Below are positions 28,052 through 64,000 of a stretch of DNA of 64,000 nt, piece by piece; the first letter of the stretch is position 1; every line of letters starts with the position of its first letter. Location: positions 1-64,000 of the IMG/VR virus record IMGVR_UViG_3300035459_000118, one strand, 5' to 3'. A program made the translations under genes and the position numbers. The notes beneath the pieces are model-generated. The model saw nothing but the letters and a program-made list of their open reading frames with translations. It searched no databases and had not been told where the DNA came from. Source of the DNA: a virus.

Positions 28052-28180
28052 AGAGGCATTCATGTCTGGCCGACGTGAACAAACCATAAATGATCCTGAA
28101 GTCTCCTTCCATCGCGAGGTGGTGGGGTAGCGGCCAGCTACGAATGCAGACTTCAGGATTTTTCTATTTTGGAGGGAGAA

Positions 28181-28870
28181 ATGAGCAGATTCAATGTACC
28201 GAAACCTTATGGGATTATTTACAAAATTGAAAATAAAATCAATGGTAGGATTTATATCGGACAAACAAAACAAGATTTAAATAAAAGAATTTTTGAGCAC
28301 GTAAATAATAATGGTAAAATGTATATACAAAATGCGATAAGAAAACACAACATTAAGTCTTTTGTATTTCTTGAAATTGATCGAGCTTATTCAAGAAATG
28401 AATTAAACGAAAAAGAAAAATATTGGATTAAAAAATTAAACTGCAAATATCCAAACGGGTATAACCTTACAAATGGAGGAGAAGGAGGTGCAACTTGGAC
28501 CGGGGGGCACCACACAGAAGAAGCAAAAGAAAAACTTAGAATAGCAAACACAGGGAGAAAACAATCAGAAGAAGAGAAAAAGAAAAGAGCTATTTCCAAT
28601 AGTGGAAAGAAAAGATCAAAAACAACAAAACATAAACAAAGTTTGGCGGCTAAAGGAAAACCAAAATCAAAAGAAAGTATTGCAAAAAGATCAAAAACAA
28701 GATTCGATAAAACAGGACCAAACAAAATAGTCTCCTGTAAAGGTTGCAATAAAATAATGGAATTAAGACCTAATGATAATAGAAAATATTGCAATTGGGA
28801 ATGTAGAGTCTTGCATCAAATAAACCCGATGAAAGGAAAAAAAACGACCCGATTTATCAGAAAGAAATAA
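28181..28870 (+). CDS. GIY-YIG homing endonuclease with NUMOD3 repeats (likely frameshifted; natural end about 28985)
   Basis: IIYKIENKINGRIYIGQT, GYNLTNGGEG, HTEEAKEKLR. The +1 frame after the A8 run continues KKRPDLSERNK...LCECGCG. Confidence 0.85.
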   Translation: MSRFNVPKPYGIIYKIENKINGRIYIGQTKQDLNKRIFEHVNNNGKMYIQNAIRKHNIKSFVFLEIDRAYSRNELNEKEKYWIKKLNCKYPNGYNLTNGGEGGATWTGGHHTEEAKEKLRIANTGRKQSEEEKKKRAISNSGKKRSKTTKHKQSLAAKGKPKSKESIAKRSKTRFDKTGPNKIVSCKGCNKIMELRPNDNRKYCNWECRVLHQINPMKGKKTTRFIRKK

Positions 28871-41021: not shown

Positions 41022-41771
41022 TTGAAAACCGAAGGGGCAACTATCTCTCACCTTCTGAAGAAGGTTTACCTCGGCGGGATCGTGGAAGAAGCGATCGTAG
41101 ACTTTGGAGCCAACACAGTCCAGGCTGTCGATCCGACCAATTCCGTTTTTCTTAAGGTGTCAGAAAAACCTTCGGGGGACGGCATCGGCAGGGTTGGGAT
41201 TGGAAGCCCAACCCTTTCCATGATCATCAAGCATTTTGATGCAATCAAAGGCGAGATTGCCATCACCCACGAAAACAATCGCCTGGTCGTAGGGGCAAAA
41301 GGTCGAGGAGAGGTAAGGTACCTCACCGTCAAAGAAGAATTCGTAGCCAGTGCTGTCGCTGAGGACAACATTGGCGCACTCGTTGACCCCTGCATACTCA
41401 CAGCCACATTGCCGGCACAGTCCTGCTCCGATTTCATGGCCTACATGGCTTTGGTAAAAACCAAGTCTGCCAAGTTCCGCTATTCCCAAAAAACCAAGAC
41501 CGTTCATATCGAAAGTGGGCTGGAAAGCGAACACCAGTTTAATGTCCCGGTCGGAGCGGCAGAATTACTGACCGATGATAAACCCGAAGACTTCTCTGTT
41601 ATGGTTTACGGCAGCCATATTGACCAGATCTTCGGTGTTCTGGAATGGTCGGAAAAAGAAAAACCAGCCATCCTCATGGCTCCGAACCATCCCTTGCTCA
41701 TCGTTCAGAATGACGAAAACATTTGGGCTTGCCTCCCGTTGACGGAGTCGGCCGAAGAACAACAATCGTAA
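41022..41771 (+). CDS. Sliding clamp (gp45/PCNA-like)
   Basis: About 250 aa with two beta-rich domains, QAVDPTNSVF; directly upstream of the clamp loader. Confidence 0.6.
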   Translation: MKTEGATISHLLKKVYLGGIVEEAIVDFGANTVQAVDPTNSVFLKVSEKPSGDGIGRVGIGSPTLSMIIKHFDAIKGEIAITHENNRLVVGAKGRGEVRYLTVKEEFVASAVAEDNIGALVDPCILTATLPAQSCSDFMAYMALVKTKSAKFRYSQKTKTVHIESGLESEHQFNVPVGAAELLTDDKPEDFSVMVYGSHIDQIFGVLEWSEKEKPAILMAPNHPLLIVQNDENIWACLPLTESAEEQQS

Positions 41772-41794
41772 GGAAACCGGCAGGAGCTGAGCGT

Positions 41795-42739
41795 ATGCAA
41801 TCGAATCTCTCGCAGTTTATCTGGTACGAAAAACACCGCCCATCAATGCTGGACGAAATGACTCTTCCCGTCCAGTATCGTCGCGCTTTCGAAGGTTACC
41901 TGAAAGAAGGGAATCTTCCGCACTTGTTGTTTCATGGTCCCCAGGGTAGCGGGAAAACCACGTTGGCCTTCGTTCTCATGAACAACATCGACTGCGTGCG
42001 GATGATTTTGAACGCTTCGTCGAGCGACCGTGGCGTTGAAACCATGCGAGGAAAAGTGAAGCAATTTGCCTCAAGCCGAACAGTTGACGGCTCTCTGAAA
42101 ATCGTGTTTTTTGACGAGAGCGACGGTCTGACTCCTCAGGCACAAGAGGCGCTGCGAAACACTATCGAAACATATGCCCAGACCTGCCGGTTTATTTTCA
42201 CCTGTAACGAGATCGACCGTATCATTGGTCCACTTCAATCTCGTTTTACCATTTTTGAATTCTCGGCGTTTCCACTTGATCAGGTTATTCAACAAGCTGA
42301 AAAGATCTTGGTCAAGGAACGCATCGAATATGATATAGAAAGCGTCAAAAAAATTGTCAACCAGCATTATCCAGATGTAAGAGCAATAATTAATAATCTC
42401 CAGTTATGTTCATCTGGAGGCGATTTAAATCCCGAAACAGTTTCCAAAACAACCGTTGACCCGGCGTTGTTGCTTGATTGCATTGCCAACGGGGAAGTTG
42501 CAAAGATACGGAAAATGCTCGTTGGGATGTCAAACTTCGTATTCGTCTACCGTTACCTGTTTGATACTCTATTGATGTGTGACGACCTCACACAAGAGCA
42601 AAAGATAGAAATAACCCACGCCTTGGCCGAAGGGCTTTACCGTGACGCGCTGGTTGCCAATCGGGAAATCAATTTCATCGACTGTGTTATAAACATTATG
42701 GGGATTATTAAATGCCCCACCATTTCATTTTTGGGATGA
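41795..42739 (+). CDS. Clamp loader ATPase subunit (RFC-small/gp44-like)
   Basis: WYEKHRP, GPQGSGKTT, LNASSDRG, DESD, LQSRF. Confidence 0.95.
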   Translation: MQSNLSQFIWYEKHRPSMLDEMTLPVQYRRAFEGYLKEGNLPHLLFHGPQGSGKTTLAFVLMNNIDCVRMILNASSSDRGVETMRGKVKQFASSRTVDGSLKIVFFDESDGLTPQAQEALRNTIETYAQTCRFIFTCNEIDRIIGPLQSRFTIFEFSAFPLDQVIQQAEKILVKERIEYDIESVKKIVNQHYPDVRAIINNLQLCSSGGDLNPETVSKTTVDPALLLDCIANGEVAKIRKMLVGMSNFVFVYRYLFDTLLMCDDLTQEQKIEITHALAEGLYRDALVANREINFIDCVINIMGIIKCPTISFLG

Positions 42740-42743
42740 ACAA

Positions 42744-43181
42744 ATGCCCCTTGACCTTTTTGGTTTCATAGAAAATTTGTTTTCTAAAAAGCAATTCATA
42801 GATTCCAGGGAGCCGTATAAAGAGACCTATATGGCGATAAAGTTTTTGTCGCTATATCCCGGGACATTTATAATTGCTGCCGTTGCCAACCGGCTTTCCT
42901 CAAAGATACCGGCTTGGGCAACTAATGTCTTTTTATTCAACACGATCAAGAAACAAAGGCCTCCTCATTTTCAGTATCCAAAGGCAGAAGAGAAAGAAAA
43001 ACAGAAATGGCCCAAAGAAGCCATTCAAAAAATATGTAACAAGTTTTGTTGTTCCGAAGAACATGCTATACAAATTTTGCAAATTTTATCAATGAAGGAT
43101 CATCAAATTCTTGAATCTCTTGGCATAGGGCCAGAAGGAGAAAAGAAAAGTGGCAACAAAAAGAATCGAAGAGTTCCTTAG
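42744..43181 (+). CDS. Clamp loader small subunit (gp62-like)
   Basis: LFGFIENL..K...YMAIKFLS...N; follows the gp44-like gene. Confidence 0.65.
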   Translation: MPLDLFGFIENLFSKKQFIDSREPYKETYMAIKFLSLYPGTFIIAAVANRLSSKIPAWATNVFLFNTIKKQRPPHFQYPKAEEKEKQKWPKEAIQKICNKFCCSEEHAIQILQILSMKDHQILESLGIGPEGEKKSGNKKNRRVP

Positions 43182-43638
43182 TAAAGGTGCAAAGCCGGAC
43201 CCGGTCAGGCAATTTGAAAAGCTTTCCGCCGGCAAAAATAAAGAAGAAGTTCGAGAACTGGAAATGGCGATGCTTACTCCAGAACCAATTCCACAATACG
43301 TCGGCGAAGAACAACGGTATATCATGAACAGCGAATTTACCGTGAAAATGGTCTTTGCCTCACAAGAGGACATGGACTTCTTTGGTCGATTCATACCAAT
43401 TGCCAACTATATGGAAAAATCTATAACCGACCTCAAGATCATGTTCGACCTTTTCCGTTCTATAGATGCCGGCAAAATTTCTTATGATAAAAAGACCGGA
43501 GTTTTTCAAATAGAAGCAGAAAAGTCAATAGAGTTACCAAAACTCCCCACCCCTCCATCTGCAAGAACAATTATTGAAGGAGTAAAAATCATTGGAAACG
43601 ACACAACAACACCCATTAAACGATTCTTCCGCCGTTAA
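43150..43638 (+). CDS. Hypothetical protein heading the modification cluster, PIP-like C-terminus
   Basis: Ends TTPIKRFFRR. Confidence 0.55.
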   Translation: MATKRIEEFLSKGAKPDPVRQFEKLSAGKNKEEVRELEMAMLTPEPIPQYVGEEQRYIMNSEFTVKMVFASQEDMDFFGRFIPIANYMEKSITDLKIMFDLFRSIDAGKISYDKKTGVFQIEAEKSIELPKLPTPPSARTIIEGVKIIGNDTTTPIKRFFRR

Positions 43639-43656
43639 ATAGAAAAGAATATAAAA

Positions 43657-44538
43657 ATGCCAAGACCCCATAAATATAAGAAAAGACAAAAAGACCTAGG
43701 TGGTCCTTGTCCAATTTGTGGAGAACCAAGGAAACTATATAAAAAGACTTGTTCAAAAGAATGCAGTTCTACCTTGAAGTCTAGAACTTTAAAGAAAATG
43801 TATGATTCTGGAGAATTAGATTTTTTAAAAGATATTCAAAAAATAGTTGGGACTGGGAACCTTGTCGCATTTAACAAAACAGAAAAAGGCAGAGAAAATG
43901 CTTCTGTTGCTTGCATAAAAAGAAATACAATCCATGGGAACCCTACAGAGAAAGAAACAATACGAATAAAGATAAGTTCTTCTAGAAAAGAAGGATTGGC
44001 TTCTGGAAGAATTCAAAATCCAATGTTAGATCCGATAAAAGCCAAAGAAGCTGGGAGAAAAAGAAAAGCTGCCTATGATTCTGGTGAAAAAGTTCACCAT
44101 ATGAAAAACCCCTTAGTGGTAAAAAAAGTAAGCGAATCTCTCAAAAAAGCCTATGCATTAGGGAAAATAACCCCAAATAGTGTTGTTTATCGGTGTCATT
44201 ACCATAGAGGTTGGTATGTTGATAAGAATGGTAATTTCCAATTTTATGCAAGCAATTGGGAATTTTTAAGAATGGAATTTTTAGATAGCTGTACAGATAT
44301 AAAATGGAGAAAAATTAGACAAGAATACCGAATCCCATATATCGATATGACAGGAGTACATAGAACCTATTTTCCGGACTTCGAGGTTCAATTTGGTGAT
44401 AAAATAATTATAGAAGAAATTGGAATTCATACAGAAGAAAAACAACATAAAATAAGATGTGCTAAGGAATATTTTAATAACAAAACAGAAATTTTTGTTG
44501 CTCTTGGAGGAAACCAATTAAATGAAAGAACTTGGTAA
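43657..44538 (+). CDS. Free-standing homing endonuclease (TnsA-like PD-(D/E)xK)
   Basis: NUMOD-like NPM repeats; YASNWE...IPY...RTYFPDF...IEE. Confidence 0.7.
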   Translation: MPRPHKYKKRQKDLGGPCPICGEPRKLYKKTCSKECSSTLKSRTLKKMYDSGELDFLKDIQKIVGTGNLVAFNKTEKGRENASVACIKRNTIHGNPTEKETIRIKISSSRKEGLASGRIQNPMLDPIKAKEAGRKRKAAYDSGEKVHHMKNPLVVKKVSESLKKAYALGKITPNSVVYRCHYHRGWYVDKNGNFQFYASNWEFLRMEFLDSCTDIKWRKIRQEYRIPYIDMTGVHRTYFPDFEVQFGDKIIIEEIGIHTEEKQHKIRCAKEYFNNKTEIFVALGGNQLNERTW

Positions 44539-45967
44539 AGATATTGACCCGCTGGAAATAGAAATCAGAACAACCGCACAACGATGGCTCAATAATAACA
44601 AGAACCTTTTAATTTCTGGAAGTGACTACCAAAGCCCAAGAATTAGCAGTGAAATCCCTGATTGCAGTATGCCGCTCAGCATGGATACGTATAAATTTTG
44701 TTCTCTAAGTTGTTGTTATTGTTTCAGTTTTTTCTTTAAAGCAAATAATCCAGCAATAAAAAATTCTGAAACAGGAATGGATCTTACCAGTATTAATGCA
44801 AAAAAATTTATAGCTGCAATTTCTGGAAAACCTATTGACAGTCGTGGAGCTATGATGCATAAGCTTTTCTATAACCGTAAATTTCTTTTACACATAGGAG
44901 GATTGGCTGATCCCTTCTGTAATTTCGAGGCAAAAAACGGAGTAGGCTATGAAATAATGAATGCTCTGGGTGATTTGAACTACCCCACTTTATTCTCTAC
45001 CAAAGGAGCCAATGTTGCATTAAGCAAAAAGTATACCGACCTCTTCGAAAGGTATGCCAAACAAAACAACTTCGCCTTTCAAGTCAGCATGGTGACCAAT
45101 GATAAAAACATGGCTTCCAGGGTAGAAATTGGAGTCCCATCCCCAGAACAAAGAATCGAATTGATTCGTCGATATAGTGCTATGGGGTATTGGACAATCC
45201 TCCGGTTACGACCTTATATTATTGGTATTACCGACGAGTCAATCGACAGTCTCCTGGAAGATGCTCTGGCAGCTGGCATCAATGCAATCAGCATGGAATT
45301 TTACGCTCTTGATGCAAGGGCTTCAGGGGAAGCCAAAAAACGCTACGATTGGCTCGGAAAGATCGTTGGCGCCAAGAACCTCATGGAATACTTCGCTCGA
45401 CTTTCTCCCGGTGAACGTGGGGGATATCGTCGGTTGAATCGTCTTGTCAAAGAAATCCATGTCAAGAAGGTCTACAAGTTCTGTATCGAACATGGCCTAG
45501 AGTTTGGTTGTTCAGACCCTGATTTCAAGGAACTCACCACGACCGGATCATGTTGCGGGATGCCAGACAAATACGAAAAGAATCATCTTCTGGAAAACTG
45601 GACCCGCCAGCAGATGACATTCCATCTTAAGGAAGCAAGAAGAATCTATCATTTAACCGGCAAATTGAATACTTTCCGGTTTACCCAGGTATACAAAGAC
45701 GAACCATATTTTGACTATCCTGGCCTAAGTCACGATCATGTTTGTGAAACAAGTATGTGCGCAGCCGACCGGGTAAACCTTACTTACCGTAGAATCCTAC
45801 GCAACTATTGGAATAATCTCCGTTCGTATGCTGCTCCCCAAAACTACTTTCATGGGAAAGTCATCGCTTGCGGGATGGATGAAAACAAAGATTTGATCTA
45901 TACGTATAATCCTATGCCGTATGAGAAACATTGGGCTGAAGAGGGGATTGACTTGAAAGGAAAGTAA
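44522..45967 (+). CDS. Radical SAM protein (spore photoproduct lyase-like)
   Basis: DTYKFCSLSCCYCF (CxxxCxxC), GGLADPF, STKG, PSPEQR, LRLRPYI, SCCG. Confidence 0.8.
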   Translation: MKELGKDIDPLEIEIRTTAQRWLNNNKNLLISGSDYQSPRISSEIPDCSMPLSMDTYKFCSLSCCYCFSFFFKANNPAIKNSETGMDLTSINAKKFIAAISGKPIDSRGAMMHKLFYNRKFLLHIGGLADPFCNFEAKNGVGYEIMNALGDLNYPTLFSTKGANVALSKKYTDLFERYAKQNNFAFQVSMVTNDKNMASRVEIGVPSPEQRIELIRRYSAMGYWTILRLRPYIIGITDESIDSLLEDALAAGINAISMEFYALDARASGEAKKRYDWLGKIVGAKNLMEYFARLSPGERGGYRRLNRLVKEIHVKKVYKFCIEHGLEFGCSDPDFKELTTTGSCCGMPDKYEKNHLLENWTRQQMTFHLKEARRIYHLTGKLNTFRFTQVYKDEPYFDYPGLSHDHVCETSMCAADRVNLTYRRILRNYWNNLRSYAAPQNYFHGKVIACGMDENKDLIYTYNPMPYEKHWAEEGIDLKGK

Positions 45968-46533
45968 TGAGTAAGTGCATTTTCATCGATACAGAAACTA
46001 CATCCGCCAATCCCGATAGGGGTGGGCTGATTCAACTTTCAGGGATCATTGAAATTGATGGCACAATAGCCGAAGAATTCGATATTCATACCAACATTTT
46101 CAAGAATGACGAAGTGACAGAAGAAGCCCTTCAAACAAATGGATACACATTGGAACAAATCTATGGCTTCTCCCATCCCAACAAGGCTTTTGTCGAATTT
46201 AGAAAGCTCCTCGAAAAATATGTTGACCCGTATAATAAGGCTGACAAATTCATTGCCCTGGCCTATGTTGCGAATTTTGACAATACAGTCCTAAGAGAAT
46301 GGTTTCGTAAAAACGGCTCCCAGTATTTTGGCAGTTATTTTTGGCACCCTTGGATTGATATATTCAATCTTGCGGCCTATTTATATCAAGACCAACGAGC
46401 GCAATTTGAGAATTTCAAAATGAAAACCGTTGCTGCTTATTTGGGAATTGAATGTGATCAAGAGCAATGCCATGGAGCACTTTACGACACGAAAATTGCC
46501 CGGCAAATATACTACAAATTAACGAGTCAATAG
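45967..46533 (+). CDS. DEDDh 3'-5' exonuclease (DnaQ-like)
   Basis: IDTETT, ANFD, HGALYD. Confidence 0.9.
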   Translation: MSKCIFIDTETTSANPDRGGLIQLSGIIEIDGTIAEEFDIHTNIFKNDEVTEEALQTNGYTLEQIYGFSHPNKAFVEFRKLLEKYVDPYNKADKFIALAYVANFDNTVLREWFRKNGSQYFGSYFWHPWIDIFNLAAYLYQDQRAQFENFKMKTVAAYLGIECDQEQCHGALYDTKIARQIYYKLTSQ

Positions 46534-46542
46534 GAGGAGAAA

Positions 46543-47640
46543 ATGGGAAACAAAAAAGTCAGGGTCGCTATCATCGGGGTTGGGAACTGCGCATCGTCAT
46601 TGGTGCAAGGTGTGCACTATTATCGGAATGCCAACGAAAAAGAAACAGTCCCAGGATTGATGCATGTCAACTTGGGAGGGTACCATGTGAACGACATCGA
46701 ATTTGTTGCAGCCATCGACGTTGCCGCAGCCAAAGTAGGCAAAGATCTTAACGAGGCGATCTTTGCCGGCGAGAATAATACGATTTGTTTTGACCAAGGA
46801 CTCGTCAATATCCCAAGCGGAGTTACCGTCCAGAGGGGAATGGTCCATGATGGCATTGGGCAGTATCTCAAGGAGGTCATCCCAATTGCTCCTGGGTCGA
46901 CCGAAGATATCGTTCAGCTGCTGAAAGACACCCATACCGATGTGGTCGTGAACTATTTGCCGGTCGGTTCCGAAGAAGGAACAAAATGGTATGTAGAACA
47001 AATCCTGCAAGCCGGTTGTGCCATGGTCAACTGCATTCCTGTTTTCATCGCCTCGGCACCGTTCTGGTCAAACAGGTTTAAGGCAAAAAATCTTCCCATT
47101 GTGGGGGATGACATCAAATCGCAGGTCGGAGCGACAATTACGCACCGGGTATTATCGTCTCTGTTTCAGGCTCGGGGAGTCCGCCTTGACCAAACATACC
47201 AACTAAACTTTGGTGGCAATACGGATTTCCTCAATATGCTGGAACGTGGCAGGCTGGAGTCAAAGAAGATTTCCAAGACCAGTTCAGTCCAGTCTACTAT
47301 GGAAAAGGAATTGAACTGTAACGATATTCATGTCGGTCCTTCAGACTATGTTCCGTTCCTCACCGACCGTAAGTTCTGTTACATCCTCATGGAAGGAACC
47401 ACGTTCGGCAATGTTCCCCTGAAGCTCGAACTCAAGCTCGAAGTCTGGGACAGCCCCAACAGTGCCGGCGTCGTGATTGATGCCGTCAGGTGTGCAAAAT
47501 TGGCTTTTGACAATGGGGTGTCAGGAGCCTTGAAATTACCCTCGGCCTATTTCATGAAACACCCAGCCGAGCAAATCGAGGATACCATTGCGAAGCTGAA
47601 GCTGGAAGAATGGATCAAAATGATTGGAGAAAAGGAATGA
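46543..47640 (+). CDS. ino1: myo-inositol-1-phosphate synthase
   Basis: [62 protein letters not shown]. Confidence 0.97.
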
Positions 47641-48341
47641 AAACAATACCAGGATTTGAGTTTCGGGAAGATTCTAATGCAGACATACGAGCCTTTTCCG
47701 AAGCTCGACATGACTGGAAATTGTTTACGTTCCCTGGAGAGGCAAGGGTCTTGGACTTGGGTGCCCATATAGGGATATTTGCCTATTTTGCGGCACCCAA
47801 TTGCCGTAAACTCTTGTGTGTAGAACCATCACGAGAATCGTTCAATATCCTCGAACGCAATGCCAAGCTGATAAAAACCGTATTCCCAGCAGTGGAAATA
47901 GAAACACTTCCCGCTGCAGTGGTTCAAAGCGAATTGAACGGACAAAAAGTCCAGCTTTACCAAAAGAAAAATTCCGAAACCAGCGACACCCTCCTCCCAA
48001 CTAGGGGGAGGGTCGGAAGTTCAACCATGGGGGTAGGCATCCTGGAACTCTGCAAAAGGTTCCTCCCCACCACAATCAAATGTGACATAGAATGTTCCGA
48101 ATACAATGTCATCCCAGAAATCCTGTCATTCTCAAGCATACTGGAAATTGGGATTGAATTCCACCGGCTCCAACAGGGAGACAACTTGGAAAGGGCTAAA
48201 GCCATTTCCGAAGCCATCATCAATAACTGGGGAGGAGGCCATGTTATTATTAAACCTCCTGTTTTTGACAAAAAATATTGGAATACTGTAGCCATATACA
48301 GGCGTAACCTTTCCTCAAGATTCAGGAAGAACAATGGATAA
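47637..48341 (+). CDS. FkbM-family SAM methyltransferase
   Basis: [26 protein letters not shown]. Confidence 0.85.
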
Positions 48342-49452
48342 ATCCGTCGAAAGCGTCAGGAAAATTGCCGCCGAAGCCGATCAATGGAAGAACTTTGCCG
48401 ATTTTTGTCGACTTGAAATGGCGGTAGGTGGGCCAGACCCTCACATGAAGTTGACCGCAGCAATGTGCAATCTAGATTCGTGTCCCTGGTCAGAAAAGGC
48501 ATGGAGGGGACTTTGTTACCTTGGAGTTTACAATGTTCCCACCGCCGAGCAAATATGGAATGCGTGGCACTTTGAGCGATCTATCATTGAGAGGGAAGAA
48601 TTTCTTCCTTGGTTTACCAAACACTGGCAAGGGATTGCGCTCCGTCGGGAGCGTAAAAGTGCCCGTAGCCCAATCAAGATGGCAAAGTATTTTGAAACCG
48701 CTTCTGCTTGGCTTTCTGAAGCACTCCTTGATAAAAAAGAAGGGATCGGATGGATCGGAGGGATGAAAGATTTATCCCCTTTTGACCGTTACGAATTTGC
48801 CTGGGAGAATGTCCAGCAAATATACTCGATGGGTCGCTACATTGCTTTCAAGTATCTTCAGTATGGGATGCAATATCTTGATTTCCCTATCAATCTGCAA
48901 GATATCCGAGCAAAAGGAGGATGGTCTCCTCGTGCCATGTTGGCAATTCTTTGGCCAGATCAGGCAGTTCCTATCCTGGGAGGGGATTCTCCAGAAGAAA
49001 TTGCAGTTGTTGATACGTATGCTGCGAAAACAAAAGCATATTTATTAGAAGGGTATGGAGTAGACCTCTCTTGGTATAATTTGCAGGTCTTGCTATGCGA
49101 CTACAAACAATGCTATGTTGGGAAAAGGCAATTCCCAGGGAGAAGTCAAGATAGTGAAATTGCCTATGCCAAGAAGATTGAAGATTATTGGGGAGGCGAT
49201 ACAATTATGTGGGAGGCTCGCTCCATGATCTTTCCTCATCAAGCCCTAGGAGAAATGAATGGTTGGTATTCTGTCCGTGAAGAATTAGGCAAGGTCCTTT
49301 ACGACCATGGATATATGTGGTCTGATCTGATTTACGATTACAATCTTTCAAAAACCCGTCTTGCTACTCCAGTGAAACACGGGGAGAAGCCAGGGAAAAG
49401 TCAAAAAACCCTAGCCTGGGAGTCAGGATTCGGGAGGTTTTTTAAAAAGTGA
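48334..49452 (+). CDS. aGPT-PPlase clade 2 / amino acid:DNA transferase-like base-modification enzyme
   Basis: GGPDP, RRER, MGRYIAFK, LLCDYK...FPGR motifs resembling this HhH-glycosylase-fold family; adjacent P-loop kinase. Confidence 0.65.
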   Translation: MDKSVESVRKIAAEADQWKNFADFCRLEMAVGGPDPHMKLTAAMCNLDSCPWSEKAWRGLCYLGVYNVPTAEQIWNAWHFERSIIEREEFLPWFTKHWQGIALRRERKSARSPIKMAKYFETASAWLSEALLDKKEGIGWIGGMKDLSPFDRYEFAWENVQQIYSMGRYIAFKYLQYGMQYLDFPINLQDIRAKGGWSPRAMLAILWPDQAVPILGGDSPEEIAVVDTYAAKTKAYLLEGYGVDLSWYNLQVLLCDYKQCYVGKRQFPGRSQDSEIAYAKKIEDYWGGDTIMWEARSMIFPHQALGEMNGWYSVREELGKVLYDHGYMWSDLIYDYNLSKTRLATPVKHGEKPGKSQKTLAWESGFGRFFKK

Positions 49453-50513
49453 GCACCTTAAAGGTCCATACTATTATTCCCGGAAAACTATACCAGAGAG
49501 GGGAATTTGTTAAACTCTCATTGAAAGAGAAGTTGAGCGAACTACAAAGGCTCAGGGTGAATATCATCGTCAACCTCTGGAATATCCCAGACATTCTTTT
49601 GAAGGATGAAATTCCTTATTATTATCACCTTCCAATCCCAGACAGCACCATAAAAGATAGTCAGTTATTGCTACATACCGTAAAAGAAGTTGCGCAGCTA
49701 ATCAAAAATGGTGGAAATGCTATTGTTCATTGTCATGCTGGAAGAAACAGGAGTGGGTTGTTCAATGCTTTGTTGTGTATGAACTTATTGGGGATGTCGG
49801 GTACCGAGGCAATAGAACATGTCAGAAAACGCAGACCAAATGCGCTGGCGAATGAAAACTTCGTGAAGTTTATTCTTGAACAAGGAGAAAATAAGATGCT
49901 CACGCGTAGAATAATCGCCATTGGTGGAGTCCCAGGAACAGGAAAAACCTGTTTGGTCAGAAAATTAATGGAGCCGGAAGATCAATGGGGTTGTTGCGAA
50001 CTTGCAAAACTCTTGGTTGCCGAATATAACAAAACACTCAATTTATACGTTTTGGGGAAATACGAAAAAGGCGAGGTTTTCGCTGGAACCGATCGGCTTT
50101 CCATGGCCGTCCAGCCAGAAGCACAAAAATGGGTTGAATCAAGTTGTTCCAATATCCTTTTCGAAGGAGACCGGCTTTTCAATGGATCTTTTCTGAGCTT
50201 CCTTTTGACCTTGCCGAATACTGAATTGCTCGTGATTTACCTGAAAGCCTCAGAATTTGAACTGAGGAAAAGATATCAACAACGAGGTTCCGACCAATCC
50301 TTACAATTCCTGAAGGGAAGAGAAACAAAATACGCCAAAATCAGACAAGATATGAGGCTCCGAAAATTCAGTTGCGAGTTTGCCCATGAAACCCCAGAAG
50401 ATACAAAAAAGATCATTGCCACTGTTCAAGCCTTTCTTTCCACTGGAACTTTACCCCCTACATTGCAAACCGCTGCCCCCACAGGAATCATGAGCTTCCT
50501 TAAAAAGAGGTAA
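49449..50513 (+). CDS. CX5R (PTP/dual-specificity) phosphatase fused to a P-loop nucleotide kinase of DNA-modification type
   Basis: VHCHAGRNRS; GGVPGTGKT, GTDRLSMAVQP, EGDRL, RGSDQ...GRETK. Confidence 0.8.
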   Translation: MSTLKVHTIIPGKLYQRGEFVKLSLKEKLSELQRLRVNIIVNLWNIPDILLKDEIPYYYHLPIPDSTIKDSQLLLHTVKEVAQLIKNGGNAIVHCHAGRNRSGLFNALLCMNLLGMSGTEAIEHVRKRRPNALANENFVKFILEQGENKMLTRRIIAIGGVPGTGKTCLVRKLMEPEDQWGCCELAKLLVAEYNKTLNLYVLGKYEKGEVFAGTDRLSMAVQPEAQKWVESSCSNILFEGDRLFNGSFLSFLLTLPNTELLVIYLKASEFELRKRYQQRGSDQSLQFLKGRETKYAKIRQDMRLRKFSCEFAHETPEDTKKIIATVQAFLSTGTLPPTLQTAAPTGIMSFLKKR

Positions 50514-50515
50514 CA

Positions 50516-53500
50516 ATGTTTACACACCTGCATGTCCATAATCACTTCAGCTACCTCGATGGCTTCGGTACCGAAGAAGAATACATCAAAAGAGCCAAAG
50601 AACTCGGAATGACACATCTTGCTATCACAAATCACGGGAACGTGGATGGCAATATCAAATTTCAAAAAGCCTGTAAGAAAGCTGGGATCACCCCCATCCA
50701 TGGGTGCGAACTCTATGTTATTCCTGATGAATATCAAAAACCCAAAGGCGAAAAAAGAGGACATATAATCGTCCTTGTTAAAAACGCGAAGGGATGGCAG
50801 AATCTTTGTCAAATGCTCACCATCGCCCACCTTGAGGGCTTCTACTATAGGCCTCGCATCGGATACAAGAATTTTCTGGAACGGTGCGAAGGGTTGGTCG
50901 TTCTGACAGGCTGTTCTTCTTCGTTTTTAGCAAAAGACACCACCGACAAAGCACTTGATTTCGTTTCCGCATTGTATGACAAAATAGGGTCAGATTTATA
51001 TCTGGAAACAATGCCCCACCGTCTGGAAGAACAAGACAAACAAAACGCTCTGTGCCTCGATTTTCAGGGACAAGTAGGAAATATTAAGCTAGTTGCCACC
51101 AACGACTGTCATTATATCCATCCCGATGAAGCCGAATCCCAAGAAGTTCTTTTGGCAATTCAAACCAAAAAGAAATGGTCAGAAACCGACCGTTATCGCT
51201 TTACTATCAGAGGGCTTTACCTCAAGTCAGAAGAAGAAATGCGCCGAGCATTCAAATTACAAGCAATTCTCTCTGATTCCCAAATCGATCAGGCATTTGC
51301 TTCAACGATGGAAATAGCTGAAAAATGCCAATTTCTGATTCCTAAACAGGACATCTCTCTCCCAAAAGTTCCTGGATATGAAAACGAAGACCCAGGGAAA
51401 TTTATATGGGACCTAGCCGAGAAGAAACTCTTAAAAATCAGCGAAAATTGGTCGACTGAAAAGATCAATATATACTTGGACCGGCTTTCAGAAGAATGGA
51501 AGTTGATAAATTCAAAGAACTTCAGTCAATATTTTATGATCATCTGGGAATTAACTTCTTGGTGCCGTAAGAATAAAATACCCGTTGGCCCTGGCCGTGG
51601 CAGCGTAGGAGGGAGCCTTCTGGCTTATCTTTTGGAAATCACTACGTGTCTAGACCCCATTGAGTATCATCTTTTGTTTTCTCGTTTTATCGCAGAAGAC
51701 CGTATTGATTATCCTGATATCGACTTAGACTTTGCCGATATAGAACGTCTTAGAATTCGCGAACATCTTGAAGCCCTTTATGGGAAAGATCACATTTCCT
51801 CCCTTTCCACATTCACAACAATGAAAGGAAGGGGTTGTGTTCGTGATGTTTGCCGGGTATTTGAAGTTCCAATATACGAAGTCGATGCATTGGCAAAATC
51901 TATTTTTGAAGACCCAGAATCAGATGAAAGTGGCGTTGAAAATGTTTTAAAAAACACCGATTTTGGGAAGGTATTTCTTGAAAAGAACCCCAAGGTATGT
52001 CAGCATATTCTAAAGCTGGAAGGTCAATGCCGTGGAGCCGGCCAACATGCAGCGGCAATAATGATTTCCGGAGAAAGCCTCCGCAACGGGACAAGAGGCA
52101 ACCTTGTCATGCGCTCCGAGGAAACCGTCACCAATTGGGATATGGGGGACTCTGAATACGTAGGATTAATGAAACTCGATGTCCTTGGGTTGAATACCCT
52201 TTCCGTATTAGAAGAAGCCAAACGGCTCATTATCAAAAACTCAGCAAAAACAGGGTTTGATTTCGACTCAATCCCATTGAATGATGAAAAAGTTTACCAG
52301 AGTCTTTATGAAGGAAACACCAATGGAGTTTTTCAGTTTTCAGCTTGGGCGACTACCAATCTTGCCAAACAACTTAAAGCAACCAATATTTTTGAACTCG
52401 CCGACATCATCGCCCTAGTAAGGCCAGGTCCAGCAGACAGCGGACAAACCGACTTGTATATTAAACGAAAGAACGAAGGGTTGGAATGGCAACCAAAGCA
52501 TCAAATTTATGAAGAAATAACTAGGAATACTTTTGGCATCATCGTGTATCAAGAACAAGTAATGGAAGTTATTCATAAGGTCGCTGGATTACCTTATGCT
52601 ACTGCTGATAAGATTCGCAAGATCATTGGTAAAAAAAGAGATGTTAAAGAATTCCAGCCTTATAAGGATGCCTTTATACAAGGTTGCGCAAAGATGAAAA
52701 CCCTCTCCCATAAAGAGGCTGAAGAATTCTGGGAGATGCTTGAAAAACACGCACACTATAGTTTTAACAAATCCCATTCTATCGCCTATGCCCTTATCGG
52801 TTATTGGACTTCTTGGATAAAGGTCCATTTCCCCGTTGAATTCATCTGCGCTTCTCTTACTTACGGTTCAGAAAGCAAGAAAGAAGATCTCCTACAAGAA
52901 GCCTTCGATATGGGGTTGAAAATCATTACCCCCAAAATTGGTATTTCTGATGCAACAGTATGGGTAGCAAAAGACGACTCCCTCTATATCCCATTCAATG
53001 AAATAAAAGGGGTCGGAGATACGACCGCCAAGAAACTGAGTGAGGTTAAAGAAGCCGCAATTCCTATACGCAAGGGCTTCTTTTGGCCAACCAAGCAAAT
53101 TAAAGCTCCTCAAAAATCGGTTAATAAAAAAGTAGACTCATTGCTTGCTCAAATTGCCGAGGCTGAAAATACTTCTAAAGATTTATCGGAATTCTTCTCT
53201 TTCAAAATCCCTTCTGATCGGCAAAAAAATTACGATATTCTGAAAAGAACTATACCTCAATTTGACGGGAACAAAAGATGGTTGAACCTCGATGTCCCTG
53301 AAATTAAAAGCAACCAACCATTAATTTATGAAAAATCTTTTGTCCCAAAACGATCGCTCGGAAGATGTAACGATTGCGAACTGCACAAGGAATGCGACGG
53401 TCCAGTCCCATCTTCGCCAGGAATATTCAATGTCGGAATAATAGGAGAGGCTCCAGGATTTGATGAAAATCAACAAAAGAAAGGTTTTGTTGGTAAGTCT

Positions 53501-53890
53501 GGGAAGATGCTTTGGGATGAACTGATAAAATATGATCTTCGGAGAGAAGACTTCCATGTCGGTAATGCTGCTAAATGTTATCCCGGGATCAACAAAACTC
53601 CATCTGCCGAACAACTGAAAATTTGTTCAGAAAAATGGTTGTTCCCCGAACTAAAAGAAATTGACTGTAAATTGATACTGGCTTTTGGCAATTGTTGCCT
53701 CCAGGCATTTATGGGGAAGAAATCGGGGATAACTCAGATAAGCGGAACCACGGAATGGTGCGAGAAAGCTGGAGCCTGGATATGCTTTTGTGTTCACCCC
53801 GCATTTGTTTTAAGAAGCCCAGAAAATAAAAACCTCTTTAAGTCTGGAATTAAAAACTTCGTCGATAAAATTCGTCTATTAGAAGGGTAA
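50516..53890 (+). CDS. dnaE: DNA polymerase III alpha (family C) with C-terminal family-4 uracil-DNA glycosylase domain
   Basis: HLHVH PHP, GPGRGS, PDIDLD, KLDVLGL, YSFNKSH; C-terminal CNDC...GEAPG...KC.P...HPA. Confidence 0.93.
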   Translation: MFTHLHVHNHFSYLDGFGTEEEYIKRAKELGMTHLAITNHGNVDGNIKFQKACKKAGITPIHGCELYVIPDEYQKPKGEKRGHIIVLVKNAKGWQNLCQMLTIAHLEGFYYRPRIGYKNFLERCEGLVVLTGCSSSFLAKDTTDKALDFVSALYDKIGSDLYLETMPHRLEEQDKQNALCLDFQGQVGNIKLVATNDCHYIHPDEAESQEVLLAIQTKKKWSETDRYRFTIRGLYLKSEEEMRRAFKLQAILSDSQIDQAFASTMEIAEKCQFLIPKQDISLPKVPGYENEDPGKFIWDLAEKKLLKISENWSTEKINIYLDRLSEEWKLINSKNFSQYFMIIWELTSWCRKNKIPVGPGRGSVGGSLLAYLLEITTCLDPIEYHLLFSRFIAEDRIDYPDIDLDFADIERLRIREHLEALYGKDHISSLSTFTTMKGRGCVRDVCRVFEVPIYEVDALAKSIFEDPESDESGVENVLKNTDFGKVFLEKNPKVCQHILKLEGQCRGAGQHAAAIMISGESLRNGTRGNLVMRSEETVTNWDMGDSEYVGLMKLDVLGLNTLSVLEEAKRLIIKNSAKTGFDFDSIPLNDEKVYQSLYEGNTNGVFQFSAWATTNLAKQLKATNIFELADIIALVRPGPADSGQTDLYIKRKNEGLEWQPKHQIYEEITRNTFGIIVYQEQVMEVIHKVAGLPYATADKIRKIIGKKRDVKEFQPYKDAFIQGCAKMKTLSHKEAEEFWEMLEKHAHYSFNKSHSIAYALIGYWTSWIKVHFPVEFICASLTYGSESKKEDLLQEAFDMGLKIITPKIGISDATVWVAKDDSLYIPFNEIKGVGDTTAKKLSEVKEAAIPIRKGFFWPTKQIKAPQKSVNKKVDSLLAQIAEAENTSKDLSEFFSFKIPSDRQKNYDILKRTIPQFDGNKRWLNLDVPEIKSNQPLIYEKSFVPKRSLGRCNDCELHKECDGPVPSSPGIFNVGIIGEAPGFDENQQKKGFVGKSGKMLWDELIKYDLRREDFHVGNAAKCYPGINKTPSAEQLKICSEKWLFPELKEIDCKLILAFGNCCLQAFMGKKSGITQISGTTEWCEKAGAWICFCVHPAFVLRSPENKNLFKSGIKNFVDKIRLLEG

Positions 53891-53898
53891 CTTATTAT

Positions 53899-54711
53899 AT
53901 GATAATTTATAAAATTGAAAATAAAATTAATGGTAAAATTTACATTGGAAAAACAACAAAATTATTAAATCAAAGAATTGCTGGTCATATAAAACAAAAT
54001 CACTCTCGTATTCAAAAAGCCTTAAGAAAATACGGGATTGAATCTTTTATAATTTCTACTATTGATTCCGCAACTTCGCAAGAATCCCTCAATGAAAAAG
54101 AAAAGTATTGGATTAAAACTTTGAATTGTCAACACCCTAATGGATATAATTTTACTATCGGTGGAGATGGGGGACCAACATGGACAGGAGGAAGACACAC
54201 CCAAGAAACAATAAAGAAAATGAAAGAAAGAAAATTTTCAGAAGAACATAAACAAAAATTAAAAGGTCCTAAATCAGAAGAACATAAACAAAAAATTTCA
54301 AAAGCTCTTTCCGGAGAAAGAAATCCTAATTATGGGAAGCCTCTTTCTGAAGAAACAAAATTAAAAAAGAGATTAGCGATGTTAGGGAGAAAAGATTCAG
54401 AAGAAACAAAACTAAAAAAGAAAAATGCAGCGACAGGGAAACATCCTTCTGATGAAACGAGGATTAAACAAAGGGAATCGCATTTAGGGCAAATTTGGAG
54501 CGATGAAGCAAGAGAAAAAAGTCGAAAAGCCCATTTAAATAAATCACATATTTGTAGCGACGAGACAAAAGAAAAAATACGTAAGTCTCGCTTAAACATA
54601 AAGCATTCCAAAGAATCAAAAGAAAAAATGAGTAAAATCAAGAAAGGGAAACCATGGAATCAAGCGAGAAGAGATGCATATAATAAAAAATATCAAAAAC
54701 TTCGTCAATAA
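53899..54711 (+). CDS. GIY-YIG homing endonuclease with NUMOD3 repeats
   Basis: IIYKIENKINGKIYIGKT; SEETK repeats; similar to the 28181 gene. Confidence 0.9.
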   Translation: MIIYKIENKINGKIYIGKTTKLLNQRIAGHIKQNHSRIQKALRKYGIESFIISTIDSATSQESLNEKEKYWIKTLNCQHPNGYNFTIGGDGGPTWTGGRHTQETIKKMKERKFSEEHKQKLKGPKSEEHKQKISKALSGERNPNYGKPLSEETKLKKRLAMLGRKDSEETKLKKKNAATGKHPSDETRIKQRESHLGQIWSDEAREKSRKAHLNKSHICSDETKEKIRKSRLNIKHSKESKEKMSKIKKGKPWNQARRDAYNKKYQKLRQ

Positions 54712-62751: not shown

Positions 62752-63185
62752 ATGGCTGAAAACGGAGAATATAGAGTCGTTTCAAATGGTTTCGTTTTCC
62801 TCGTTGAGCAATATGTAAAGAAACGATTTTTATTTTTTAGTTGGGGAAAATGGTATCTTTTGCATTCAATGTCACCAGATGGAGATTTCGATCAACCAAA
62901 AGAATTCAATACAGAAAAAGAAGCACGAGATAGAATTAAAGAACTCAAAAAACAAGATGAGGCAGAAAGTAAAAAACACCCGTTCGTTGAGGTTCCAGAA
63001 TGGCCGAGAGCCTAGGGCAAATCCCTTTTGGGAATACACATAAAGGAAAAGACATTGAAGATTGTCCGACTGATTATCTGACTTGGCTCAAAGGCGAAAA
63101 ATGGTTCCAGGATAAGTATCCTGCATTGCGCAAGAATATACTTGCGGAATTGAAATACAGAGAAAGATTTGGTGACCCGGAATGA
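62752..63185 (+). other. Two small ORFs (62752-63015; 63000-63185 with PFG.HKG..I...P.DYL.W motif)
   Basis: ORF track and motif. Confidence 0.55.
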
Positions 63186-63811
63186 AAATCATAGGCATTA
63201 TAGGCAAAAAGGGATCGGGTAAAACAACCTTTGCTAATTACCTTCAAGCTGAGTTTGAAAAGGCTCCCAAGGAACTTGCTCTCCGATTTTCATTCGGGAA
63301 ACCCCTGAAACAGATGATCGAACAAGCCGAAATTTGTTCACATAAAGAACTCTATGAAGAAAAAACGGCATTTTCGCGCCTGATGATGCAAAAGATCGGA
63401 ACGGAGATTATTCGTCGTATTGATCCTGATTATTTTTGCAAGCAAATGTGGAATGGCTTACATACAGCCTTTTCACACGAACCAACCTCTATTATCATTA
63501 TTGATGATGTCCGTTTTAAAAACGAAGCCCAGCTTATCCGGTCATTGGGAGGAATTTTAATCAAAATAGAAAGAGAGATTCAAAAGCAAGAAGATAATCA
63601 TACCTCAGAAATTGAACAAGATACGATTCGTTATCATCTTCTTTACCAAAATAATGTCTCATTAGAAAACCTCCAGAAACAAGCACAATATTTTTGTTCA
63701 TGGTCCTCAGAAGAAAACGCTAACTGTATGCCAACCCGAAAAGAACATTTCCGAAAGGAGAATACAAAATCATGGAGATCATTCGTCCCTCGTTCCAGAT
63801 ACTCGCTATGA
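63182..63811 (+). CDS. Deoxynucleoside monophosphate kinase
   Basis: GKKGSGKT, MQKIGTE..R, DDVRFKNE, HTSE. Confidence 0.88.
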   Translation: MKIIGIIGKKGSGKTTFANYLQAEFEKAPKELALRFSFGKPLKQMIEQAEICSHKELYEEKTAFSRLMMQKIGTEIIRRIDPDYFCKQMWNGLHTAFSHEPTSIIIIDDVRFKNEAQLIRSLGGILIKIEREIQKQEDNHTSEIEQDTIRYHLLYQNNVSLENLQKQAQYFCSWSSEENANCMPTRKEHFRKENTKSWRSFVPRSRYSL

Positions 63812-64000
63812 CCGGTCACCCGGAGCTTCCGTATCAATATCAGCCAAACCCGGAACTGTTGATCGAAGCTGCCGGGAGAACCTGTTACAAATCCGAAGAC
63901 AAGATCACCGAAGGGTCGGCAAAGGATTTCGTTGCAATGGCCCAGGAAAAGAAACACCTAACTGTCCTGGAACATTCCTGGGAGGTGAGAAGGTATCCAA
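63772..64000 (+). CDS. thyX: FAD-dependent thymidylate synthase (partial)
   Basis: Manual translation MEIIRPSF...IEAAGRTCYKSEDKITEGSA...HLTVLEH; RBS AAGGAG. Confidence 0.8.
   Translation, partial: MEIIRPSFQILAMTGHPELPYQYQPNPELLIEAAGRTCYKSEDKITEGSAKDFVAMAQEKKHLTVLEHSWEVRRYP

Follow-up and report, generated by a model that had tools for sequence, protein, structure and literature searches.

The window considered here, the whole stretch of 64,000 nucleotides that was analyzed, covers the first 64 kb of an IMG/VR virus record (IMGVR_UViG_3300035459_000118) of 98,971 bp, which is probably complete, given its direct terminal repeats. Its replication module runs on the + strand from the clamp loader through ORF162, a TnsA-like open reading frame (ORF), a radical SAM gene, an exonuclease gene and a four-ORF block to the gene for DnaE. 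The block, at 46543-50513, encodes a myo-inositol-3-phosphate synthase (Ino1), an FkbM methyltransferase, a transferase of the ADDT family (PF18724, the renamed aGPT-Pplase2 family) and a phosphatase-kinase fusion (Table 1). These genes form a tightly translationally coupled run, with stop and start codons overlapping as ATGA at 47637-47640 (the ATG at 47637 is likely the FkbM start, overlapping the ino1 stop), as ATGGATAA at 48334-48341 and as GTGA at 49449-49452, and a purine-rich stretch precedes each of the overlapping starts at 47637, 48334 and 49449. The genes and their overlaps had been named in an earlier, sequence-only reading of this DNA; the genes all lie at the stated coordinates, on the + strand, direct reading bore out the overlaps, and the block does sit between clamp loader and DnaE (flanks at 41723-43181 and 50516-53890). 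That reading had drawn the block as 43150-50513; we retain 46543-50513, whereas 43150-44538, holding ORF162 and the TnsA-like ORF, lies outside the pathway. The block behaves as a unit: in a close relative, the closest cassette-less phage (L196, 75% identity), a gene for a TET-associated glycosyltransferase (TAGT, PF20691) fills the slot between exonuclease and dnaE instead, and two other relatives (L038 and L039) share the arrangement of the window, with proteins 61-84% identical. A megablast search with the block as query gave no match among 50,697 phage records. The best explanation for the block is that it is a mobile thymidine-hypermodification cassette with a donor made by the phage itself.

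Judged by homology, Ino1 is a canonical myo-inositol-3-phosphate synthase. It aligns with Mycobacterium tuberculosis Ino1 (PDB 1GR0) over residues 4-358 with an E value of 2e-138 and shares with that enzyme a conserved N-terminal NAD-binding GxGxxA region, while 6k96, a synthase for a five-membered cyclitol phosphate, is matched far less well (3.7e-51). Its score against TIGR03450 is 496 bits, below the NCBIfam equivalog cut-off of 638.

The transferase had been assigned to the aGPT-Pplase2/ADDT family from the letters alone, and this assignment is borne out by a hidden Markov model match, by the predicted fold and by a conserved nucleophilic cysteine. The AlphaFold2 model (pLDDT 93.4) superimposes on the crystal structure of PaMx11 gp46, the 5-phosphomethyl-dU (5-PmdU) glycinyltransferase (8z2n), with a Z score of 16.8 and a root-mean-square deviation of 3.5 Å over 247 residues, the next structural matches being HhH glycosylases at Z 9. 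Cys255, within the motif LLCDYKQ, is invariant in 31 homologues and aligns with the Cys of the ETVLC motif of M6 gp51, the counterpart of Cys247 in PaMx11 gp46. BLASTP of the ADDT, the kinase and the 293-aa ORF of the window against M6 gp51, gp54 and gp55 gave nothing significant, so profile and fold comparison was needed; on these comparisons, the transferase appears to be a real but divergent ADDT. The clade to which it belongs carries a C-terminal extension and is nearly always followed by a DSP phosphatase. No relative of the clade was found in 185,579 GTDB species genomes.

Both catalytic motifs of the fusion protein, the CX5R loop HCHAGRNRSG and the Walker A motif GGVPGTGKT, are intact. 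The DSP domain, through HCHAGRNRSG and the PIPD acid loop, aligns with the archaeal protein tyrosine phosphatase 5z5b. The kinase domain falls in phrog_800, the family under which M6 gp54 is annotated, and is presumed to be a DNA kinase acting on 5-hydroxymethyldeoxyuridine (5-hmdU). HMUDK_hel was not found in the genome, which fits a cassette of the kinase-3 type. Phosphatase and kinase are separate genes in most relatives, and an in-frame AAGGAG-N7-ATG at 49881-49899 falls exactly at the boundary between the two domains, so that a stand-alone kinase may be translated from an internal start besides the fusion. Natural fusions of ADDT and DSP, of about 500 aa, also occur (P0008, P0044, P0047, P0087 and L014:10013-11524, with ADDT N-terminal in L014). 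The FkbM methyltransferase has no match in Pfam.

To see how regularly ino1 accompanies the transferase, we considered the loci in which this ADDT clade occurs. An alignment-based scan yielded ADDT loci where a single-protein scan of viral contigs yielded none, and the viral and metagenome contig scans together gave 110 loci, which form 63 clusters at 95% identity. The upstream sequence is long enough to judge in 51 clusters, and 26 of these have ino1 as the gene immediately before ADDT, on the same strand; many loci are fragments, and the counts are lower bounds where contigs end. The trait is clustered on the ADDT tree (a quick tree with SH-aLRT support only), requiring 10 changes against a shuffled mean of 17.3, and none of 500 shuffles was as low. 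Seen from the other side, 292 viral contigs encode relatives of Ino1, and among the best 80 of these, 41 carry this ADDT clade immediately downstream, nearly every contig with an Ino1 identity of at least 54% among them. In ten loci the gene immediately before ino1 encodes an ADDT of a second, canonical clade (PF18724, 1.3e-52); these loci are Caulobacter phage Cr30, Ralstonia phage RP13 and 8 contigs, and they have Tet_JBP, FkbM and Ploopntkinase3 kinase genes nearby. The association of ino1 with the transferase in other phages, which the sequence-only reading had called for, is thus present in two clades. Since ino1 is found with either kind of kinase and with each of the three putative sources of 5-hydroxymethyluracil (5-hmU), it goes with the transferase rather than with the other components of the system. 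As far as gene neighborhoods can tell, it is difficult to account for the pairing if the product of Ino1 takes no part in the ADDT reaction.

Both ADDT clades have a phosphatase along with ino1, and the two folds, DSP and HAD, are unrelated. In the clade of the window, a DSP phosphatase follows ADDT in 55 of the 63 non-redundant loci. One ino1-less locus has a HAD_2 hydrolase gene directly upstream of ADDT (L018:5742-6476). Loci of the Cr30 type have a protein of 116-169 aa after ino1 (14 loci), with invariant DxDG, TG, K and EDD; a profile of this protein found no PDB match by sequence. The predicted model (pLDDT 91.3) is similar to HAD phosphatases, the T4 Pnkp 3'-phosphatase among them, and on this fold and the invariant residues we identify the protein as a HAD phosphatase. 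The presence of two unrelated phosphatase folds beside ino1 argues that dephosphorylation of inositol 3-phosphate is part of the pathway, and the likeness to enzymes acting on polymer-bound phosphates suggests that this may occur on DNA. In Cr30 itself (KF301602, L002:1703-10596) and in RP13 (L003), Tet_JBP, canonical ADDT, a weak TAGT-like ORF, ino1, the small HAD-type phosphatase and the Ploopntkinase3 kinase stand in one cluster; the Tet_JBP of Cr30 is annotated as SNF2-like and its ADDT as hypothetical.

From the gene content, we think it fairly probable that Ino1 makes inositol 3-phosphate, that ADDT couples it through a hydroxyl to kinase-activated 5-hmdU, that the phosphatase removes the phosphate and that the FkbM enzyme adds an O-methyl group. 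In such a pathway, thymine in replicated DNA would first be converted to 5-hmU, the best candidate for this step being the SPL-like radical SAM enzyme in place of a TET/JBP enzyme, and the kinase domain would then phosphorylate the hydroxymethyl group. Cys255 of ADDT would attack C6, expel the phosphate and present an exocyclic methylene, to which inositol 3-phosphate (or free inositol) would add through one of its hydroxyls to give an ether, much as serine does in ViI. The DSP phosphatase would remove the inositol phosphate, probably on DNA, and the FkbM enzyme would O-methylate a hydroxyl of the cyclitol ring. The expected product is 5-(O-methyl-inosityl-oxymethyl)-deoxyuridine, which would shield the DNA from host nucleases. 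The exocyclic methylene formed by ADDT enzymes accepts amines, hydroxyls and thiols (PMC8989533; PMC11472151), and a diamine is also accepted as donor in the Pplase2/ADDT family (PMC13458397, 2026), so a polyol donor is chemically reasonable. We infer the ether linkage, the choice between free inositol and inositol phosphate as donor, and the target of the methyltransferase, as we do everything beyond the identities of the genes and of their neighbors.

Several observations weigh against this pathway. The metal-binding Glu that is essential in M6 gp51 and PaMx11 gp46, and that lies four residues before the catalytic Cys in the latter (PMC11472151), aligns with Gln251 in the ADDT of the window, in a profile alignment of the clade to M6 gp51 that is itself weak (probability 16%); Glu and Gln are roughly equally frequent at position 251 across the clade, and an Asp or Glu directly after the Cys is invariant. 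The kinase domain is barely above the PF18751 cut-off (27.7 against 27 bits). About half of the ADDT clade is without ino1, and the tree requires that the trait was gained or lost four times or more. The DSP phosphatase follows ADDT in 23 of 25 loci lacking ino1 as well, so we rejected the idea that it is specific to ino1; it may for example clear unreacted phosphomethyl-dU. Only 8 of the 26 ino1-positive clusters have a methyltransferase between ino1 and ADDT, where two unrelated families, FkbM and class I, alternate, and methylation would thus be an optional tailoring step. Lastly, no ThyA-type dUMP hydroxymethylase (PF00303) and no Tet_JBP protein (PF12851) was found in the 98,971-bp genome by searches that detect these families in other viral records or controls, with tblastn from a limited query set that may miss divergent genes, and the required 5-hmdU substrate is therefore without a known source. 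We accordingly file the cassette as working like a thymidine hypermodification system (Lee et al. 2018, 2021) with its first step performed by some other enzyme.

One could suppose that the cassette carries out an ordinary thymidine hypermodification with an amino acid or amine, and that Ino1 is an unrelated auxiliary metabolic gene, supplying for example host inositol for lipids, mycothiol or osmolytes. The characterized ADDT enzymes all use amino acids or a diamine (PMC8989533, PMC13458397, PMC11472151), half of the clade manages without a phage ino1, and the Ino1 of the window is similar to the cellular enzyme at the 65% level. This seems to us quite improbable, however, as the adjacency recurs across ADDT proteins only 30-47% identical and again in the second clade, nearly all viral ino1 genes of this clade adjoin ADDT, and the genes are translationally coupled. 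The cassette also has none of the tailoring genes of the amino-acid pathways, namely pyridoxal phosphate (PLP) decarboxylase, flavin-lyase and acetyltransferase genes.

An inositol group might instead be attached by another chemistry: the phosphate could be retained, the link could run through a phosphate oxygen, or the cyclitol could be altered first, with the DSP enzyme acting on leftover 5-phosphomethyl-dU. The occurrence of DSP with ADDT irrespective of ino1 would fit, and ino1 beside a DegT aminotransferase in other viral loci suggests inosamine routes, but a fused kinase and phosphatase acting on the same phosphate would make a futile cycle, a non-homologous HAD phosphatase appears specifically after ino1 in the second clade, and the cassette of the window contains no aminotransferase or dehydrogenase. 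We regard these variants as fairly unlikely, and prefer the coupling of inositol through a hydroxyl followed by dephosphorylation.

Viral ino1 genes also occur in other surroundings. In Stenotrophomonas phage Mendera (L001:6092-11618) and in L133, L138, L175, L181, L183 and L187, ino1 lies inside a 7-deazaguanine cluster with GTP cyclohydrolase I, a QueC-like protein, a 404-aa unknown protein and QueE, which suggests, tentatively, that inositol has another use in phage DNA as well, one based on guanine. In L166, L167, L171 and L177, ino1, in some cases as a fusion of 700-800 aa, follows a DegT/StrS-type aminotransferase gene and precedes PAPS-reductase/DUF3440 and ParB_N-like genes, an arrangement that may represent an inosamine route connected with a further system of DNA modification. 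Yet another type of modification cluster, in L172, L173, L179 and L192-L195, has ino1 beside genes for ThyA-like and dCMP deaminase proteins, a weakly T4 beta-glucosyltransferase-like protein, an HMUDK_hel protein, FkbM and a C5 cytosine methylase.

We return to the source of 5-hmU, for which the neighborhoods of the radical SAM gene are informative. The sequence-only reading had noted this gene just upstream of the run; it is indeed there, at 44522-45967, but it is a backbone gene and not part of the mobile cassette, with the exonuclease gene intervening between it and ino1. Its closest relatives occupy the same backbone, from clamp loader to DnaE, in phages that have neither ino1 nor ADDT, and we rejected it as a member of the inositol cassette on that ground. 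In the genome search, the ADDT of the window served as a positive control and was recovered at 43.2 bits. The protein has a C60-x3-C64-x2-C67 cluster motif, with C48 and C344-C345 also conserved. It matches the NCBIfam models PA0069 (1.8e-17) and Rv2578c (5.9e-14) far below their equivalog cut-offs, its homologues contain PF04055 and are labelled 'DNA repair photolyase' at source, and phmmer against PDB sequences gave no match at E values up to 1. The family comprises 516 proteins, and 359 viral contigs encode relatives, of which we read the neighborhoods in 80 loci (L196-L275). Two homologues (P0137 and P0227) contain an intein (PF14890).

Among 18 non-redundant cassettes of the same kinase type as that of the window, 13 have Tet_JBP and 5 have an SPL-like radical SAM gene; no cassette combines the two or lacks both, and ThyA occurs in none. 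In the 25 cassettes of the other kinase type, ThyA-like genes are present, and Tet_JBP and radical SAM genes are absent. Quite apart from ADDT, a TAGT gene lies within a few kb downstream of the radical SAM gene, often immediately adjoining it, in 27 of the 80 loci, and in five records with this radical SAM-TAGT pair, three of them at least 95% complete, searches found no Tet_JBP, ThyA-like gene or C5 cytosine methylase. Examples of the pair are L196:3062-9427 and L205:7995-15255; the latter, a complete 95-kb phage, has a B12-binding radical SAM gene, two SPASM radical SAM genes and two TAGT genes between the radical SAM gene and dnaE. Enzymes needing a 5-hydroxymethylpyrimidine are thus found repeatedly beside this radical SAM gene in genomes with no known maker of one, and we therefore read the radical SAM enzyme as the candidate maker of 5-hmU. 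There is moderate evidence that it makes 5-hmU from thymine in DNA without oxygen. It could also be a repair enzyme placed there by chance. We know of no described enzyme for the anaerobic hydroxylation of 5-methylpyrimidines in DNA. Our wider suggestion is a tentative one, which we would not yet call probable: that the SPL-like radical SAM enzyme and its phage family are an oxygen-independent counterpart of TET/JBP, turning thymine into 5-hmU or an equivalent activated methylene and feeding either TET-associated glycosyltransferases or the kinase/ADDT pair, so that with an inositol donor a methylated-cyclitol base would be made post-replicatively without oxygen.

The radical SAM enzyme might alternatively be an isomerase like M6 gp53, converting an O-linked to a C-linked adduct, in which case the 375-aa ThyX homologue could be the dUMP hydroxymethylase behind 5-hmdU, and the dNMP kinase would pass the product on to the polymerase. 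M6 gp53 is an SPL-like radical SAM protein that matches the enzyme of the window in length and, weakly, in sequence (BLASTP E 1e-5, with 20% identity across 204 residues), and distant members of the radical SAM family, at 31-34% identity, adjoin divergent ADDT and kinase genes. ThyX is the sole thymidylate-synthase-like gene in the genome and adjoins the dNMP kinase gene, and in L038 a 206-aa ThyX lies between kinase and dnaE, inside the cassette region. Against this, the closest relatives of the radical SAM protein (at least 49% identity) are in complete phages without ADDT, many of them directly beside TAGT. Close membership in the gp53 type of glycinyl-thymine isomerase was rejected, given the low identity, the absence of a PLP enzyme from the window and nearest relatives without ADDT. 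The ThyX of the window keeps the canonical RHR...S...S.R motif, with an insertion of about 90 residues between its N-terminal part and the RHR motif, and ThyX coexists with Tet_JBP in another phage. We know of no ThyX hydroxymethylase, and consider this division of labor unlikely.

Finally, the genome's lack of a known 5-hmU source, together with the absence of the cassette from the close relative L196, might mean that the phage acquired the cassette recently and that, as no 5-hmdU is made, the module does not function in it. This is highly improbable in our view: the four ORFs are intact, with their catalytic motifs and coupled starts, the arrangement has been kept in L038 and L039 at the identities given above, and all five of the radical-SAM-bearing loci of the kinase-3 type are without Tet_JBP, which argues for a substitute and not a defect. 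We continue to favor a working cassette, with the radical SAM enzyme as the best candidate for the supply of 5-hmU.

By analogy, the system would work like the M6, ViI and PaMx11 pathways, with which it shares the kinase and transferase families, and it differs from them in four respects: a donor that is a phage-made cyclitol phosphate, an obligatory phosphatase, the lack of amino-acid tailoring enzymes and the lack of a known 5-hmU source. In Salmonella phage ViI (5-HMUDK gp67, ADDT gp247, PLP decarboxylase gp226; product 5-NeOmdU), as proposed here, 5-hmdU is activated post-replicatively by a kinase and ADDT then adds an oxygen nucleophile, the hydroxyl of serine, giving an ether at the C5 methylene (PMC8989533). 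The donor in ViI, however, is a free amino acid that is later decarboxylated, whereas the window has no PLP enzyme and has, in its place, a dedicated cyclitol-phosphate synthase together with phosphatase and methyltransferase genes. In the phages treated in PMC8989533, 5-hmdU comes from a ThyA-type dUMP hydroxymethylase, and the genome of the window has none.

The Pseudomonas phages M6 (gp54/gp51/gp53/gp52) and PaMx11 (gp49/gp46/gp47/gp48) likewise combine a P-loop kinase with ADDT, and M6 also has an SPL-like radical SAM protein of about 480 aa. The ADDT of the window is only about 14-20% identical in sequence to theirs, with Gln-Val in place of the Glu-Thr before the Cys, and its clade is set apart from them by the C-terminal extension and by the obligatory DSP partner. 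The radical SAM protein of the window belongs to a subfamily that lives without ADDT. The diamine DNA transferase (DADT) of Acinetobacter phage SH-Ab 15599 is a Pplase2/ADDT enzyme that takes a donor other than an amino acid (PMC13458397); unlike the proposal made here, its nucleophile is an amine from host metabolism and not a polyol made by the phage.

The TET/JBP systems, that is, phage TET with TAGT and the kinetoplastid base J, resemble the proposal in that a 5-methylpyrimidine is oxidized in DNA and then decorated, and the same ADDT/kinase-3 cassette adjoins Tet_JBP in related loci. Inosityl-hmdU would be isobaric with glucosyl-hmdU, the base J nucleoside. The window differs from these systems in lacking a dioxygenase, in the expected cyclitol ether, which would have no anomeric carbon and need no nucleotide-sugar donor, and in its transferase, which is predicted to have an HhH-glycosylase-like fold of two bundles and is not a glycosyltransferase. 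As for the radical SAM protein, spore photoproduct lyase (SPL), itself a radical SAM enzyme, belongs to the same 'DNA repair photolyase' group and handles a thymine C5-methylene radical inside DNA, but the protein of the window has no significant match to solved structures and its genomic partners are DNA-modification enzymes, not repair genes.

Thymidine hypermodifications described so far carry an amino acid or a polyamine, and the sugar modifications described are glycosides for which nucleotide sugars serve as donors. The presence of ino1 within a thymine-decorating gene set, recurring in dozens of unrelated phages, points to an undescribed DNA base bearing inositol. A cyclitol ether on DNA would, if real, be a new chemical class of natural nucleobase with a virus-made donor. 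The pairing is present in the cultured phages Caulobacter Cr30 and Ralstonia RP13, and the prediction is therefore directly testable by mass spectrometry. Such bases bear on the resistance of phages to restriction and CRISPR nucleases, cause artefacts in sequencing and nanopore reads, and are a source of DNA-labelling enzymes. The radical SAM family, paired with TET-associated glycosyltransferases in genomes lacking TET, is a candidate for anaerobic hydroxylation of 5-methylpyrimidines in DNA. In line with the sequence-only reading, which was aware of no described inositol-modified DNA base, a full-text search, outside which most subscription journals lie, found no paper tying inositol, or radical SAM with TAGT, to DNA hypermodification. 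A 2021 survey of metagenomic clusters gives radical SAM, PLP, flavin, amidoligase, glutaminotransferase and TET proteins as partners, and Ino1 is not among them.

Table 1. Features of the cassette and of the surrounding genes, in positions of the window unless stated otherwise.
Feature	Coordinates	Strand	Basis or remark
Ino1, myo-inositol-3-phosphate synthase	46543-47640	+	PF01658 3.9e-35; TIGR03450 6e-149, full length
FkbM methyltransferase	47637-48341 (longest ORF from 47610)	+	TIGR01444 45.4 bits (cut-off 37.7)
ADDT / aGPT-Pplase2 transferase	48334-49452	+	PF18724 42.5 bits (cut-off 26.2)
DSP (CX5R) phosphatase domain of fusion	49449-49898	+	PF00782 DSPc 6.7e-14
P-loop kinase domain of fusion (Ploopntkinase3 type)	49897-50513	+	PF18751 27.7 bits (cut-off 27)
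Clamp loader large subunit	41723-42739	+	AAA / DNA_pol3_delta2 / Gp44_lid; phrog_225; upstream border of replication module
Clamp loader small subunit	42744-43181	+	same basis as large subunit (pair 41723-43181)
ORF162 (162 aa)	43150-43638	+	conserved neighbor upstream of radical SAM gene; not cassette-specific
TnsA-like / DUF7487 nuclease-like ORF (293 aa)	43657-44538	+	weak Pfam Tn7_TnsA-like_N and treble clef
Radical SAM enzyme, SPL-like (481 aa)	44522-45967	+	CX3CX2C motif; NCBIfam PA0069/Rv2578c-like, 1.8e-17
DnaQ-like 3'-5' exonuclease	45967-46533	+	PF00929 RNase_T 5.4e-14; phrog_192 DNA polymerase exonuclease subunit
DnaE-type polymerase	50516-53890	+	PHP, DNA_pol3_alpha and finger domains; downstream cassette border
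dNMP kinase	63182-63811	+	PF21448 DNMK 1.4e-19
ThyX homologue (375 aa)	genome 63772-64899 (window part 63772-64000)	+	PF02511 Thy1 2.4e-31

The DnaQ-like exonuclease, a probable proofreading subunit for DnaE, is the upstream edge of the slot into which the cassette is inserted. ORF162 has no match in Pfam, NCBIfam or Atlas; in 29 of the 80 viral loci a homologue immediately precedes the radical SAM gene. The 293-aa ORF has DUF7487, TnsA-like and NUMOD3 phage proteins as its Atlas feature and structure neighbors and is missing at the equivalent position in L196; it is probably a homing endonuclease outside the pathway. L038, the closest relative with the cassette, has an ORF for a Dam-like N6-adenine methylase (995-1975) after the radical SAM gene and, between FkbM and ADDT, an extra 362-aa ORF with no Pfam match (L038:4429-5517). 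DnaE bears a C-terminal domain of the UDG superfamily (PF03167, residues 973-1107). Directly after dnaE lies a GIY-YIG/NUMOD3 homing endonuclease gene at 53899-54711, and another GIY-YIG ORF is found at 28169-28870.

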